DNA of 64,000 bases from Clostridia bacterium (GTDB lineage Bacteria; Bacillota; Clostridia; Oscillospirales; CAG-272), in NCBI GenBank assembly GCA_017462485.1, contig JAFTRA010000006.1:1275-65274 (forward strand), read 5' to 3'. The position numbers and the translations under genes were made by a program. Under the pieces are notes generated by a model, which worked only from the letters and a program-made list of their open reading frames with translations, made no database searches and was not told the DNA's origin. Below are positions 3,925-61,984 of the stretch, piece by piece; positions within the stretch are counted from its first letter, which is position 1, and the number at the start of each line of letters is the position of its first letter.

Positions 3925-4048
3925 AAAACCTCGGAGAGCGCCAACCGTTCCCGAGATCCAAACCTACTCATCTTCAGGAATTGGCACCTTATATACACAG
4001 GTTGCCGGGCTTCACAGGGCCAGTCCCTCCACCGCTCTTGATAAGGCT
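3925..4048 (-). promoter_or_regulatory. SAM-I (S-box) riboswitch with terminator expression platform
   Basis: The minus strand reads CCTTATCAAGAGCGGTGGAGGGACTGGCCCTGTGAAGCCCGGCAACC...GGTGCCAATTCCTGAAGATGAG. This matches the conserved S-box core: P1 CUUAUC/GAUGAG, GGAGGGACUGGCCC, GCAACC and GUGCCAAUUCC. It is followed by hairpin ATCTCGG...CCGAGGT plus a T-run, directly upstream of metK. Confidence 0.85.
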
Positions 4049-40085: not shown

Positions 40086-40093
40086 AAAATAAA

Positions 40094-40292
40094 CCCGCAT
40101 AGGCCGTGTACAGCAAAAGTTTAACCCTGTTTGTACAGGTGGGTGCTCTCTCGGTTGCTTTGCGCTTCCAACGTCTCTCATAAGGGGTATAAAAACAGCC
40201 TTATTTGAGGAGGCCTGCATCCCGACAACCGAAGCCCAAGCTCCCCGGCAATGTGTGTAGGTCCAAATATGCCATATCACGCACCTCGCAGG
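40094..40292 (-). ncRNA. Candidate structured RNA of about 199 nt, either 6S-like or a cis-regulatory leader of the ATPase gene
   Basis: The 5' CCUGCGAGGUGCGUG pairs with the 3' CACGGCCUAUGCGGG at 12 of 15 positions, GU pairs included. The imperfect helix continues through UUUGGACCU/GGGUUAAA. There is an internal 9-bp helix CUUCGGUUG/CAACCGAGAG. A small hairpin, CCUGU-ACAA-ACAGG, sits on the 3' side of an internal loop. A U-tract and a terminator follow. No credible ORF is present. Confidence 0.4.
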
Positions 40293-40306
40293 AAATCCTG
40301 ATTCAA

Positions 40307-58097: not shown

Positions 58098-59066
58098 ATG
58101 ACGAAGAAAACGGCAATACAAAAAAATATATATTACCGAAAAGAAAAAAAGGGGCTATCCCCCATTCTTACTCTTTTTGCTTGCTTTTTCGTTTTTATGA
58201 CCTCTCTTTTTCTTTCGGACAAAATAGCTCATTCGGTACGCTCCGGGCTATCTTTATGCGCTAAAGTTATAATCCCGTCAGTATTCCCTTTTATAGTGCT
58301 TTCGGATTTTTTATACGCTCACGCTGACTTTAGTTCGCTAAATCGTACGGGCGCGTTTTTTGAAAAAATATTCAAAATAAACAGAGTCGGCATTTACCCC
58401 TTTATGCTCGGTATTCTTTGCGGTTTTCCTCTGGGAGTTAAGTGCGCTAAGGAGCTTTATGGGGACGCAAAGCTTACAAAAGACGAAGCGGAGCGCATAA
58501 TCGGCTTTTGCAACAACACGGGTCCTGCCTTTCTTGTTTCGGGTATAGGTCTTGGACTCCGAGGTAATATTTTAGAGGGTTTTTTACTCTATTTCGTTAT
58601 GGTTGGCTCTGCGGTGATAACGGGAATTATATTCTCCAAAAGCAGCGATAACGTAGATTGCAACGTGTCATTTTCCGGCAGTGGCAGATTCTCATTCACC
58701 GAGTCAATAAAAAGCGCAGGAATTTCAACGCTCGTCATATGCTCCTATCTTACGTTCTTTGCGTGCGTTGTAGGACTTTTGAGAAATACGATAGGCGAAA
58801 ACCTTATATATATCCTTTTGGTGCCTTTGCTCGAAGTTGGAAGCGCTGCAAGTATTCTTTCAAAAACAAAGGTTATCTCCGATATACTTACGCTTTCATT
58901 AACCTCTTTTGCGGTAGGCTTTTCGGGTTTTTCGGTTCATTTTCAGGCTTTATCCTATCTTGATTCCTGCGATTTGTCAACAAAGCGTTACTTTTTAATG
59001 AAAATTACGCAAGGTATTCTTTCCTTCCTTTTAACGTTTATTATATCTTTTATTGCGCGCTTATAA
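58098..59066 (+). CDS. ylbJ: Sporulation integral membrane protein YlbJ-like (nucleoside-recognition/Gate-type domains)
   Basis: This is a polytopic membrane protein of 322 aa with IIPSVFPFIVLSDFL and CGFPLGVK motifs. It is divergent from the yqfC operon. Confidence 0.65.
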   Translation: MTKKTAIQKNIYYRKEKKGLSPILTLFACFFVFMTSLFLSDKIAHSVRSGLSLCAKVIIPSVFPFIVLSDFLYAHADFSSLNRTGAFFEKIFKINRVGIYPFMLGILCGFPLGVKCAKELYGDAKLTKDEAERIIGFCNNTGPAFLVSGIGLGLRGNILEGFLLYFVMVGSAVITGIIFSKSSDNVDCNVSFSGSGRFSFTESIKSAGISTLVICSYLTFFACVVGLLRNTIGENLIYILLVPLLEVGSAASILSKTKVISDILTLSLTSFAVGFSGFSVHFQALSYLDSCDLSTKRYFLMKITQGILSFLLTFIISFIARL

Positions 59067-59106: not shown

Positions 59107-59198
59107 ATTTCAACCTTGATAAATTTAAATCTTCATAATTTTAAAGCGAAGCTTCCAGTTTTTTTTATGGAAACTTCGCTCTTTTTCGGTTCTACCTT
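59107..59198 (+). repeat. Dispersed ~90-bp repeat containing an intrinsic terminator, copy 1
   Basis: ATTTCAACCTTGATAAATTTAAATCTTCATAATTTTAAAGCGAAGCTTCCAGTTTTTTTTATGGAAACTTCGCTCTTTTTCGGTTCTACC is closely similar to 63413-63501. The embedded hairpin is AGCGAAG.TTCCA / TGGAAACTTCGCT, followed by CTTTTT. Confidence 0.85.
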
Positions 59199-59227: not shown

Positions 59228-59443
59228 TTAAAATTTACAATTCTCCTTTATACAGTTGCCCATAGCAATATTTTCTTTTTCGCCTTCTGGATCAAATTCG
59301 GGAAAACAAAGCAAATAATAGTCGCACTCGTCGCAACAACACTCAAAACCTTGTTCACCGTTGCCAAGACAAAAGGGTGGCTCTCCGGGCGTGATTTCCA
59401 CACCGGTAATATCGATTATCCTTTTTTGAACATTCTTGCTCAT
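59228..59443 (-). CDS. Cys-rich 71-aa protein, function unknown
   Basis: The product is MSKNVQKRIIDITGVEITPGEPPFCLGNGEQGFECCCDECDYYLLCFPEFDPEGEKENIAMGNCIKENCKF, with 8 Cys. A GGGGGA RBS lies 4-5 nt upstream of the ATG at 59443. Confidence 0.55.
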   Translation of the reverse strand: MSKNVQKRIIDITGVEITPGEPPFCLGNGEQGFECCCDECDYYLLCFPEFDPEGEKENIAMGNCIKENCKF

Positions 59444-59678
59444 ATGTCCCCCTATCATAATATAAAAAGGTGCGCAACCGAAGTCACGCACCGAAAAACG
59501 CAAACTCCGATTGCTGCTACACAAAACCAGATAAACGGGATAATGGTATCCGACATACTACCTGATGGAATTTGCGCTTTTACCAAATTCAAAAGTAGTA
59601 TGCCTAAAAAAGGGTATAACATCCCCTATAAAAAATAGAAAGACCATTAGCCCTAAAAGTTTATTCGGTTTTGTGTAG
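59444..59678 (-). promoter_or_regulatory. Candidate riboswitch-like or attenuator leader: a 162-nt three-way-junction RNA plus an intrinsic terminator
   Basis: On the minus strand, the P1 helix pairs CUACACAAAACCGAAUAAAC with GUUUAUCUGGUUUUGUGUAG (19 of 20 positions). It is extended by GGGCUAAUGGU/ACCAUUAUCCC. The arms are hairpins AGGGGAU-GUU-AUACCCU and GGCAUACUAC...GUAGUAUGUC, the latter containing GAAUUUG-loop-CAAAUUC. The terminator GGUGCGUGACUUCGGUUGCGCACC-UUUUU follows, about 20 nt before the start codon. Confidence 0.45.
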
Positions 59679-59685
59679 CGTATTT

Positions 59686-59714
59686 ATTATATCACAATTT
59701 TTGTGTTTTGTAAA
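59686..59714 (-). promoter_or_regulatory. Sigma-A promoter firing into the structured leader
   Basis: The minus strand reads TTTACA, a 17-nt spacer, then TGaTATAAT. The -10 ends 7 nt before the base of the P1 helix. Confidence 0.55.
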
Positions 59715-59790
59715 CATTTTTTGCAAAAATTTATTGCATAACCTTCCGAGATGTAGAAAAAAAGCCTCCCTTGTGTAATTAGACAAAAAA

Positions 59791-59826
59791 GAATACGGCA
59801 TACCTCTTTCGAGACATACCGTATTC
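59791..59826 (-). terminator. Intrinsic terminator of the small lipoprotein gene
   Basis: The hairpin is GAATACGGTATG-loop-ATGCCGTATTC, followed by TTTTTT on the minus strand. Confidence 0.65.
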
Positions 59827-59888
59827 TTGCAAAACTTTCCTTTAGGAGACGAGCCTAAAAGTCTGTTTCTCTTCTATTTGTTTTTAAA

Positions 59889-60083
59889 TCAGTCTATTTC
59901 CCAATCAACCAGCGGGCCTTCAAGCTCGGGCTCGTCACCCGTAGTCGTTCCACTGTCTTTATTATTAGTACTGTCATTGTTGTTCGACTTATCATCGTCC
60001 TTGTCATCATTACCAAAAAGGGTACACGAGAACATAGAGAACGTGAGAATCAAAACAAGCAGCAGAATCAAAAGCTTTTTCAT
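59889..60083 (-). CDS. Small secreted lipoprotein with a low-complexity acidic/Asn-rich mature part
   Basis: The signal peptide is MKKLLILLLVLILTFSMFSC with a lipobox-like FSC. A D/K/N-rich region follows. The protein is 64 aa. Confidence 0.55.
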   Translation of the reverse strand: MKKLLILLLVLILTFSMFSCTLFGNDDKDDDKSNNNDSTNNKDSGTTTGDEPELEGPLVDWEID

Positions 60084-60190: not shown

Positions 60191-61984
60191 TTACTTGGAA
60201 AGCCTCTCTTCAAGGGACTTAAGCTCATCGTAAAGCTCTGCGGGAACTCTGTCACCTACCTGAGCGTAGAACTGACGAATGCCTGCGCAGTCTTCGAGCC
60301 AAAGCTCCTTATCAACGGAAAGAAGGTCAGCAAGAGTTTCCTTGGTGATATCAAGTCCTTCAATGTTGATATCCTCTACGTGAGGAACGTAGCCGATAGG
60401 AGTCTCAGTAGCGTCAACCTTGCCCTCGCAACGAGCGAGAATCCAAAGAAGAACACGCATATTGTCACCAAAGCCGGGCCAGATGAAGTGACCTTCATCA
60501 TCGGTTCTGAACCAGTTAACGTGGAAAATCTTGGGGGGATTTGCAAGCTTCTTGCCCATAGCGAGCCAGTGAGCCCAATAGTCACCCATATCGTAACCAA
60601 CGAAGGGACGCATAGCCATGGGGTCACGACGAACTACGCCGACAGCTCCTGCTGCAGCCGCAGTGGTCTCAGACGCCATAATAGAACCAACGAAGGTACC
60701 GTTCTGCCAATCTCTTGACTGATATACAAGGGGAGCAGTCTTTGCGCGGCGGCCGCCGAATACGATTGCGGATACGGGAACGCCTGCGGGATCGTTGAAC
60801 TTATCGGAAATACAGGGGCAATTCTCTGCCATAGCGGTAAATCTGGAGTTGGGATGAGCGCCGGAGGTATTAACCTTATCAGCCTTATCATACTTCTTGT
60901 AATCCCACTTCTCGCCCTTCCAGTTAAGAGCGTTAACGGGAGGATTATTGTCAAGACCTTCCCACCAAACAGTATTATTGTCAAGGTTATGGCAAACGTT
61001 GGTGAAGATAGTGTCACGCATAGCGGTGTGAAGCGCGTTGGGGTTGGACTTCTCGTTAGTTCCGGGAGCAACACCGAAGAAGCCGTTCTCGGGGTTAACT
61101 GCCCAAAGTCTGCCGTCCTTACCTACACGGAGCCAAGCGATATCGTCGCCTACGCACCATACCTTATATCCCTTCTTCTTATAAATTTCCGGAGGAATAA
61201 GCATAGCAAGGTTGGTCTTTCCGCAAGCGGAGGGGAATGCAGCAGTAATGTACTTAACCTCACCCTCGGGAGTTTCCACACCGAGAATAAGCATATGCTC
61301 TGCCATCCAGCCCTCTTTTCTTCCAAGGTAGGAAGCTATACGGAGAGCGAAGCACTTCTTACCGAGAAGAACGTTTCCGCCGTAACCGGAGTTAACAGAC
61401 CAAATGGTATTGTCCTCAGGGAAATGACAGATGTATCTGTTCTCCTGGCTGAGCTCTGCTCTTGCGTGAAGTCCCTTGATGAAATCTGCGCTATCTCCAA
61501 GAGCGTCAAGAACGTTAAGTCCTACTCTTGTCATAATAATCATATTGAGAACAACGTATATAGAGTCGGTAAGCTCGATACCGTATTTTGCGAAATCAGA
61601 GCCAACTACGGACATCGAATAAGGAATAACGTACATGGGCTTTCCCTTATAAGAATTCTTGTAAAGCTTGGAAAGCTTCTCATAGCATTCCTTGGGGTCC
61701 ATCCAGTTATTGATGTTACCTGCGTCCTCTTTCTTGGATGTGCAGATAAACGTTCTGTCCTCTACTCTCGCAACGTCGTTGATTGCGGTTCTGTGAAGGT
61801 AGCAGTTAGGAAGAAGCTCCTCGTTAAGCTTGATAAGGTCGCCGCACTTGCAAGCTTCAGCGCGAAGCGCTTCGGTCTGCTCGGGAGTACCGTCGACAAG
61901 AATAATGTCAGAGGGATTAACAAGCTCTGCCATCTCTGCAATCCAAGCGTTAACATAACTGTTCTTTGTTACATTTGTGTTCAT
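60191..61984 (-). CDS. pckG: Phosphoenolpyruvate carboxykinase (GTP-dependent type)
   Basis: The 597-aa protein has the kinase-1a motif FPSACGKTNLAM and the GTP-PEPCK-type N-terminus WIAEMAELVNP. Confidence 0.93.
   Translation of the reverse strand: MNTNVTKNSYVNAWIAEMAELVNPSDIILVDGTPEQTEALRAEACKCGDLIKLNEELLPNCYLHRTAINDVARVEDRTFICTSKKEDAGNINNWMDPKECYEKLSKLYKNSYKGKPMYVIPYSMSVVGSDFAKYGIELTDSIYVVLNMIIMTRVGLNVLDALGDSADFIKGLHARAELSQENRYICHFPEDNTIWSVNSGYGGNVLLGKKCFALRIASYLGRKEGWMAEHMLILGVETPEGEVKYITAAFPSACGKTNLAMLIPPEIYKKKGYKVWCVGDDIAWLRVGKDGRLWAVNPENGFFGVAPGTNEKSNPNALHTAMRDTIFTNVCHNLDNNTVWWEGLDNNPPVNALNWKGEKWDYKKYDKADKVNTSGAHPNSRFTAMAENCPCISDKFNDPAGVPVSAIVFGGRRAKTAPLVYQSRDWQNGTFVGSIMASETTAAAAGAVGVVRRDPMAMRPFVGYDMGDYWAHWLAMGKKLANPPKIFHVNWFRTDDEGHFIWPGFGDNMRVLLWILARCEGKVDATETPIGYVPHVEDINIEGLDITKETLADLLSVDKELWLEDCAGIRQFYAQVGDRVPAELYDELKSLEERLSK

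Follow-up and report, generated by a model that had tools for sequence, protein, structure and literature searches.

A multi-copy family of leader RNAs, without earlier description, that probably acts by transcription attenuation in gut Clostridia

The DNA analysed here, referred to below as the window, is a 64,000-nucleotide (nt) stretch from a Clostridia bacterium (GenBank assembly GCA_017462485.1, contig JAFTRA010000006.1, positions 1,275 to 65,274). Close to one end of the window, a promoter, a long structured RNA and an intrinsic terminator precede an open reading frame (ORF) for a small Cys-rich protein, or microprotein. The structured RNA is probably the 5′ leader of the microprotein gene, and would belong to a large, uncatalogued family of cis-acting transcription-attenuation RNAs of gut Clostridia. 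Five mutually exclusive helices in the leader (P1, H0, H1, H2 and H3) compete with the terminator, and each of them covaries. In silico analysis establishes the helices and the gene context, and also that the helices exclude one another and covary; from these we infer the direction of the switch, and regulation as such. The leader represents a real, multi-copy family of probable attenuator RNAs that has no earlier description. Its unusual traits are a two-branched relay, a very long P1 helix, a portable cassette of promoter, leader and terminator, and an association with many unrelated accessory, envelope and Cys-rich genes.

A first-pass annotation of the window, made from the sequence, had proposed a promoter, a three-way-junction leader, a terminator, a ribosome-binding site (RBS) and an ORF, in that order. 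Every one of these parts was found. All features of the element are on the minus strand, and their coordinates are window positions:

59714-59709, minus strand: −35 hexamer TTTACA, followed by a 17-nt spacer
59694-59686, minus strand: extended −10 element TGaTATAAT
59659-59679, minus strand: 5′ strand of P1, GCUACACAAAACCGAAUAAAC, with the transcript start ~6 nt upstream
59516-59536, minus strand: 3′ strand of P1, pairing with 59679-59659
59653-59638 with 59551-59537, minus strand: P2, in which the rod continues from P1 past an internal loop
59610-59627, minus strand: P3 hairpin, GGG...UAUACCC, followed by a conserved U-run at 59609-59605
59552-59604, minus strand: P4 arm, a 12-base-pair (bp) outer stem plus the apical hairpin H1
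59590-59583, 59582-59577 and 59576-59567, minus strand: H1, consisting of GAAUUUGG, the loop UAAAAG and the switch strand CGCAAAUUCC, respectively
59567-59582, minus strand: switch strand plus A-rich loop, with either the P4 5′ strand (H1) or the linker (H2) as partner
59524-59521 with 59514-59511, minus strand: H0, UUGU of the P1 3′ strand with GCAA
59494-59512, minus strand: 19-nt linker AAUCGGAGUUUGCGUUUUU, common to H0, H2 and the antiterminator H3
59476-59512, minus strand: antiterminator H3, linker AAUCGGAGUU with GACUUCGGUU
59464-59492, minus strand: intrinsic terminator GGUGCGUGAC-UUCG-GUUGCGCACC plus U5, with its hairpin at 59492-59469
59454-59449, minus strand: RBS GGGGGA, ~5 nt before the ATG and ~10 nt after the U-tract
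59443-59228, minus strand: ORF of the 71-amino-acid (aa) Cys-rich microprotein, with its ATG at 59443, its stop at 59230-59228 and 8 Cys

The promoter of the window copy matches the consensus at 11 of 12 positions and has the extended TG in addition. P1 in this copy is composed of 14 bp, one bulge and a further 6 bp. The terminator has a 10-bp stem, with six G-C pairs, and a UUCG loop; GACUUCGGUU spans its 5′ half, its loop and the first 3 nt of its 3′ half, so that H3 and the terminator cannot form together. The 246-nt leader folds with a minimum free energy of −88.3 kcal/mol, compared with −54.6 ± 4.4 kcal/mol for dinucleotide shuffles (z = −7.6), and none of 200 shuffles was as stable. A strong terminator at 59828-59789 separates the leader unit from the upstream gene. 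Because the upstream gene is closed by a terminator of its own, the leader and the ORF form their own transcription unit.

Evidence for the fold comes primarily from covariation. A covariance model, R1, was built from eight copies in this genome, and the alignment used for covariation consists of 110 matches gathered by the model alone, without a sequence pattern. Double changes are found in 51 of the 52 modelled pairs, which supports the fold. Paired cells make up 91.6% of the alignment; this value falls to 31-52% if one partner is displaced by 1-3 columns, and shuffles give 70%, and a blind mutual-information scan ranked the model's own pairs at the top. Moreover, G·U pairs outnumber A·C mismatches 578 to 88 (6.6-fold). 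This strong bias toward G·U indicates that the fold works as RNA, on the transcribed strand only. P1 is 98.1% paired, with double changes at all 13 pairs; helices 2 and 3, in the P2 region, are 84-85% paired, with double changes at every pair; P3 is 84.6% paired, with double changes at three of three pairs; and the terminator is 97.1% paired, with double changes at 10 of 10 pairs. Among long-form members, UAUACCCUUUUUU is nearly invariant. The promoter is likewise part of the conserved unit: the −10 element is at a fixed distance from P1 in 99 of 109 members, the TGn extension is present in 95 of 109, and a −35-like hexamer is found at the expected position in 66 of 109.

The same alignment supports the alternative helices. 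The antiterminator H3 is 86.4% paired (at most 62% when slid), with double changes at 9 of 10 pairs, in line with the attenuator proposed in the first-pass annotation, and H3 is present in the minimum-free-energy fold of the whole window leader. H2, in which ~15 bp form between the linker and the 3′ strand of the P4 tip plus the A-rich loop, is 95.8% paired (at most 69% when slid), again with double changes at 9 of 10 pairs. H1, which H2 must displace, is less conserved than H2, at 87.8% paired (at most 56% when slid). H0, formed by ACAA at the start of the linker and UUGU of the P1 3′ strand, is 97.2% paired, with double changes at all four pairs. In the window copy, the calculated energies are −6.0 kcal/mol for H1, −19.6 for H2, −12.8 for H3 and −15.4 for the terminator. 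Single columns covary with two partners, linking the helices in a chain: P1 (15:293), H0 (293:311), H3 (311:395) and the terminator (395:352). Together, columns 15, 293, 311, 395 and 352 occupy at least four joint states, all of which preserve the pairing of P1, H0, H3 and the terminator. The leader is thus an unusually well-determined in silico case of a multi-step strand-exchange relay, with one branch through P1, H0, H3 and the terminator, and another through H1, H2 and H3.

How might such a relay control transcription? A constitutive-looking sigma-A promoter would start the RNA 6 nt before the 162-nt three-way-junction rod (P1-P2, P3 and P4). Three partners would then compete for the linker: the 5′ half and loop of the terminator (H3), the P4 tip (H2) and the UUGU of the P1 3′ strand (H0). 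H2 would need the weak apical hairpin H1 to be opened, and H0 would need the lower half of P1 to be opened. In the predicted ON state, P1 and H1 are closed, leaving the linker free to pair with the emerging terminator half (H3), and RNA polymerase would read on. In the predicted OFF state, with the lower part of P1 and H1 open, the linker is held in H0 and H2; this lets the terminator form, and an RNA of ~215 nt would be released. With P1 fully zipped, the exit of the linker would be ~20 bp from the P4 tip; with H0 formed, it would be beside the tip. From this geometry, we infer that H0 and H2 would form cooperatively.

The leader is a repeated component of the genome. BLASTN, nhmmer and R1 find nine copies in the 2.2-Mb, 98%-complete genome, one of them split over two contig ends and one a degenerate short form. 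The copies are 64-72% identical to the window copy, and all of them consist of a separate promoter, a rod, a linker and a terminator, the last being near-identical among copies. Genes for paralogues of the Cys-rich microprotein follow five copies, and lipoprotein or membrane-protein genes follow the others. Within the order, R1 matches 98 of 151 genomes, with more than 350 matches and up to 15 copies per genome; this set includes 90 genomes of the same genus, of which 77 are matched. Six genomes of the genus in which no leader is found are at least 92% complete. In an even draw across the class Clostridia, 37 of 150 genomes are matched, from 26 of 108 genera, and in a phylum-wide draw the matches of R1 were confined to this genome and a second one from the class, with none outside the class. 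An exact-pattern scan of 185,579 species genomes returned 107 stretches. The 80 stretches listed of these 107 are all from metagenome-assembled genomes from human or animal guts, labeled as Clostridia, Eubacteriales, Oscillospiraceae, Acutalibacteraceae, Ca. Scatosoma, uncultured Ruminococcus and, in one case, Lachnospiraceae.

The first-pass annotation had recognized no known riboswitch class in the leader, and this assessment holds: a scan with Rfam 15, which covers the SAM, cobalamin, c-di-GMP, M-box, yybP-ykoY, NiCo, ZTP, lysine, glycine, T-box and PyrR families among others, finds nothing within 59465-59685 at the gathering score, nor at E ≤ 10. For 20 further family members, there is no Rfam match inside the element at E ≤ 0.1. 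A weak match to PyrR (22.7 bits, compared with a gathering score of 54) is upstream of the element, at 59758-59866, and lies on the terminator of the preceding gene. The same scan finds a SAM-I riboswitch (3965-4047, minus strand, 68.5 bits) and a 6S RNA (40088-40297, minus strand, 69 bits) in the window. Ordinary riboswitch classes therefore exist in this organism, and the scan detects them. Searches of full-text literature by keyword and by sequence string found no description of the leader family. Nor was the family found in the main text of Fremin & Bhatt 2021 (PMC8040213) or in the first 200 of its 408 supplementary files.

Several observations connect the leaders to the genes that follow them. 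For 170 of 193 leaders, a same-strand ORF with a Shine-Dalgarno (SD) sequence lies within 250 nt, starting a median of 22 nt after the modelled U-tract; for the other 23, no ORF is called within 250 nt. Since a median gap of 22 nt leaves no room for another promoter, the downstream genes should depend on read-through. The downstream proteins were grouped into 84 clusters, as follows:

Cys-rich microproteins: 27 members
Zinc-knuckle lipoproteins: 21 members
Copper-amine-oxidase-N1-like wall proteins: 8 members
Zinc-ribbon membrane proteins: 7 members
SHOCT proteins: 6 members
MazE/AbrB-like proteins with a zinc ribbon: 5 members
SLOG proteins: 5 members
Singletons: 68 clusters

The mean Cys content of the downstream proteins is 3.7%, compared with 1.7%, and 25% have at least two CxxC motifs, compared with 5% (13% compared with 5% with one representative per cluster). 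The hint that the first-pass annotation drew from the Cys-rich product thus extends to the downstream genes more generally. N-terminal hydrophobic segments are also more common in the downstream proteins (40%, compared with 18%).

Some observations weigh against an interpretation of the family as cis-acting attenuators with a shared switch. About a quarter of members (~29 of 110) are short forms that lack P3 and P4, which speaks against a single conserved ligand pocket. In these, the tip hairpin is GYAUUUUUA...GGUAAAAAUGC, and a linker that resembles the 5′ strand is again present, as GGAGnUAUGCAUUUUU; judged by inspection, the short forms keep the same strand-exchange logic. The covariation statistics are inflated by kinship among copies. 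H2 and H0 either form pseudoknots or have to compete against P1, a 20-bp helix of high stability, and their cotranscriptional formation is predicted from covariation and geometry only. No effector emerged among the candidates checked. Lastly, seven leaders have a second complete leader unit 30-80 nt further on, with no gene between them. The terminated RNA from such tandem units may have a function of its own, in trans. Head-to-tail leader units also resemble tandem attenuators.

Could the leaders instead be true riboswitches? The first-pass annotation had left the choice between a riboswitch and an attenuator undecided; the attenuator is supported, and the case for a metabolite-binding riboswitch is less clear, given that the short forms lack the three-way junction. 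A riboswitch would require the junction, with its conserved UAUACCCUUUUUU and GGUAAAAAYG, to bind a small molecule or a metal ion (e.g., Zn2+ or a thiol), locking P1 and H1 and causing read-through. This is possible, if doubtful. Unpaired nucleotides of the junction and the P4 loop are conserved, the multi-copy regulon is like those of second-messenger riboswitches, and the downstream proteins are enriched in Cys and CxxC, many of them being zinc-ribbon or zinc-knuckle proteins. However, the H2 and H0 pairings account for most of the conserved “loop” nucleotides, the short forms consist of just a hairpin and a linker mimic, and P1 is far longer and more stable than the P1 stems of typical aptamers. 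Cyclic di-GMP (c-di-GMP) is ruled out, as described below, and no ligand can be named. An unlikely alternative is that the units are independent genes for trans-acting small RNAs, comparable to LhrC1-5, Qrr or the csRNAs, such that their adjacency to genes is incidental, or that they act in trans as well as in cis. Such genes would fit the presence of a separate promoter and a strong terminator in every unit, the seven units that directly precede another unit and the 23 without a called ORF, and the conserved single-stranded motifs could act as seed regions. Nevertheless, the units are not independent of the neighboring gene, given the SD and same-strand ORF that follow 170 of 193 of them at a short distance, and an antiterminator that covaries with the terminator would be purposeless in a pure small RNA gene. 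In addition, Hfq was not detected in the genome, and searches of the remaining sequence gave neither complementary targets nor decoys.

Far less probable is a mobile or repeat DNA element that merely carries a promoter and a hairpin, such as a miniature inverted-repeat transposable element (MITE), a palindrome like the repetitive extragenic palindromic (REP) sequences, or an integron attC-like site. The first-pass annotation had raised a MITE-like insertion as a caveat, and had regarded occurrence in many unrelated contexts as the sign of a repeat element. The unit is indeed multi-copy, in unrelated genomic contexts, and is bounded by long inverted repeats that are almost perfect; some leader-gene units are in tandem, like cassettes, and some P1 variants (GCUCAAC...GUUGAGC) fit the attC consensus RYYYAAC/GTTRRRY. 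The conclusion that it is a repeat element does not follow, since the copies are diverged and strand-specific, and carry their own promoter before a same-strand gene. The low identity between copies, the compensatory changes at nearly every pair and the G·U-over-A·C asymmetry, which indicates a one-strand fold, lead us to reject the MITE, REP and attC readings. Furthermore, orientation and spacing to the downstream ORF are fixed, CAC/GUG replaces the AAC/GUU core of attC in 40 of 110 members (C-G at pair 11:298), the units carry a promoter and a terminator and lie 5′ of the gene, and no viral contig in IMG/VR has an exact match to the conserved long-form pattern. Scarcely credible is the remaining alternative, that a hydrophobic 55-aa ORF (59622-59455) in the window copy encodes a type I toxin or a leader peptide, with the folds controlling its mRNA. 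Long helices that close the 5′ end on the 3′ end are typical of type I toxin mRNAs. However, the ATG is absent from most paralogues, the ORF runs through the terminator and has no SD ahead of it, and Pfam lends it no support. No frame is enriched for ATG-initiated ORFs: those that stop at the UAA of the conserved loop occur in 11 of 85 cases, compared with 19 of 85 and 9 of 85 in the other frames. The leader-peptide or toxin reading is refuted because the ORF is not conserved. In the public gene calls, the microproteins themselves are extended upstream through the leader terminator, producing false N-termini such as ...VCVFRCVASVAHLFYMLIGGYM (homologues P0009, P0046, P0076, P0109 and others), and the 55-aa ORF of the window (59455-59622, minus strand) is the same artefact of translating the terminator.

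If the leaders are attenuators, what sets the switch? The effector could well be, at close to even chances, a protein or another RNA with a binding site in the conserved 5′ strand, the internal loop or the UGGUAAAAAUGC hairpin. A small molecule or metal ion is a weaker candidate, and it is slightly less likely again that there is no specific effector, with the leader acting as a kinetic or constitutive damper. Several specific candidates can be set aside. c-di-GMP is excluded because a six-frame Pfam search of the 98%-complete genome finds no GGDEF domain. Hfq, CsrA and cold-shock-domain proteins were undetected in the genome by the same type of search, and tblastn with B. subtilis Hfq, CsrA and cold-shock queries found none in the genome. 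The Cys-rich microprotein is rejected as an autoregulatory trans factor: of the 37 genomes of the class-wide draw that have a leader, only 10 encode it, and so do two to three leader-negative ones. A genome search for trans decoys, in the form of isolated second copies of the switch strand or the linker, gave only chance matches inside coding regions. No recurrent regulator gene was found beside the leaders, where the neighbors are families of regulated genes, an ABC transporter and housekeeping genes. A more speculative proposal, which we consider improbable, is that the leader family is the sensor of a new global regulon: a riboswitch-like relay in which a ligand chooses between the closed rod and the captured linker. 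Zn2+ or a thiol/redox signal would be the most attractive ligand because the regulon is rich in zinc-ribbon, zinc-knuckle and Cys-rich proteins. If this were true, the switch would set dozens of Cys-rich envelope and microprotein genes together, and, were the ligand zinc, it would be the first zinc-responsive riboswitch and would underlie an RNA-based zinc-sparing or zinc-loading program.

The proposed attenuators share features with several known systems. Like the S-box/SAM-I and T-box leaders of Firmicutes and the PyrR-bound pyr attenuators of B. subtilis, they have a promoter-proximal structured leader with an intrinsic terminator at its end, an antiterminator that takes the 5′ half of the terminator and so excludes it, an upstream strand that sequesters the antiterminator strand, and the RBS of the gene immediately after the terminator. 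Unlike those leaders, they have no sequence or structure match in Rfam 15, their closing helix is at least 20 bp, and anti-antitermination is divided between two distinct helices, H0 (which uses the P1 3′ strand) and H2 (which uses the P4 tip). They also occur in up to 15 copies per genome before unrelated accessory genes, rather than before the genes of one metabolic pathway. The c-di-GMP-I and c-di-GMP-II riboswitch regulons of Clostridioides difficile and its relatives similarly have many copies per genome, which control surface, adhesin and envelope genes through transcription termination, but the fold is different, neither class is matched in Rfam, and the genome has no GGDEF. Listeria LhrC1-5, Vibrio Qrr1-5 and the streptococcal csRNAs are also paralogous units of ~100-200 nt with their own promoter and terminator, some of them in tandem; the leader units differ in that nearly all are joined to a same-strand ORF ~22 nt on and have a covarying antiterminator.

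What would be the implications of the attenuator family? If this interpretation holds, a single family of RNAs controls as many as 15 genes in each genome of numerous abundant Clostridia of the gut and rumen that have not been cultured. The gated genes would encode surface lipoproteins, membrane proteins and Cys-rich microproteins, the likeliest mediators of contact with the host, phage and neighboring cells. The leader family is invisible to annotation, as there is no Rfam model and gene callers translate the terminator as false N-terminal extensions. Identification of the effector would bring to light a global signal that is new for these bacteria.

The Cys-rich microprotein is a member of an orphan protein family that comprises more than 1,134 cluster representatives, each an uncharacterized protein from Clostridia. 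Its conserved core is M.K.IQK.IDITGVELTPGEP.VCLGNGEQGFECCCDECDYYLLCFPEFD. The first-pass annotation had described an 8-Cys microprotein; the eight Cys are present, with six of them conserved in the family (C25, C35, C36, C37, C40 and C46) and the C-terminal CIKENC pair particular to the window copy. Profile searches of Pfam, NCBIfam and PDB found no significant relative, the best match being to the Cys-rich zinc region of NSD3 (E = 0.08). An AlphaFold2 model made with a 49-sequence alignment has a pLDDT (predicted local distance difference test score) of 41 and is unusable. The Cys pattern by itself makes a zinc-binding or metal-cluster module plausible. Some relatives (the downstream ORFs of L009, L017 and L093) carry, C-terminal to the Cys-rich domain, a fused basic domain, PPPSKRHKIRMNRLFRERVGG... 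This basic domain (PPPSKRHKIRMNRLFRERVGGSFLPFPE...KLKINE..RRKKRR) is also found as a stand-alone protein behind leaders, at 11 loci, and has no Pfam or NCBIfam family.

Examples of tandem leaders include L191 (G232:C6:110812-111882), L213, L220, L196, L069 and L099, which have two or three units, each with a promoter and terminator. In other cases, gaps of 170-210 nt between leaders (L024:1067-1500, L029 and L021) hold just a truncated remnant of a downstream gene, such as a 25-aa N-terminal piece of a PPPSKRHK-family protein. These remnants suggest decay or turnover of leader-gene cassettes.

On the upstream side of the leader in the window, a 64-aa lipoprotein-like ORF (59889-60083, minus strand) has a signal peptide, a Cys and an Asp/Asn-rich tail. 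Its Pfam similarities are weak, to Conotoxin and YxzE alone. It sits between pckA (60191-61984, minus strand) and the leader, and ends in a terminator with an 18-bp stem (59789-59828, minus strand). On the downstream side, a hairpin terminator (59107-59198, AAAGAGCGAAGTTTCC-loop-GGAAGCTTCGCTTT) lies between the Cys-rich ORF and a convergent gene for a 322-aa membrane protein (58098-59066, plus strand).

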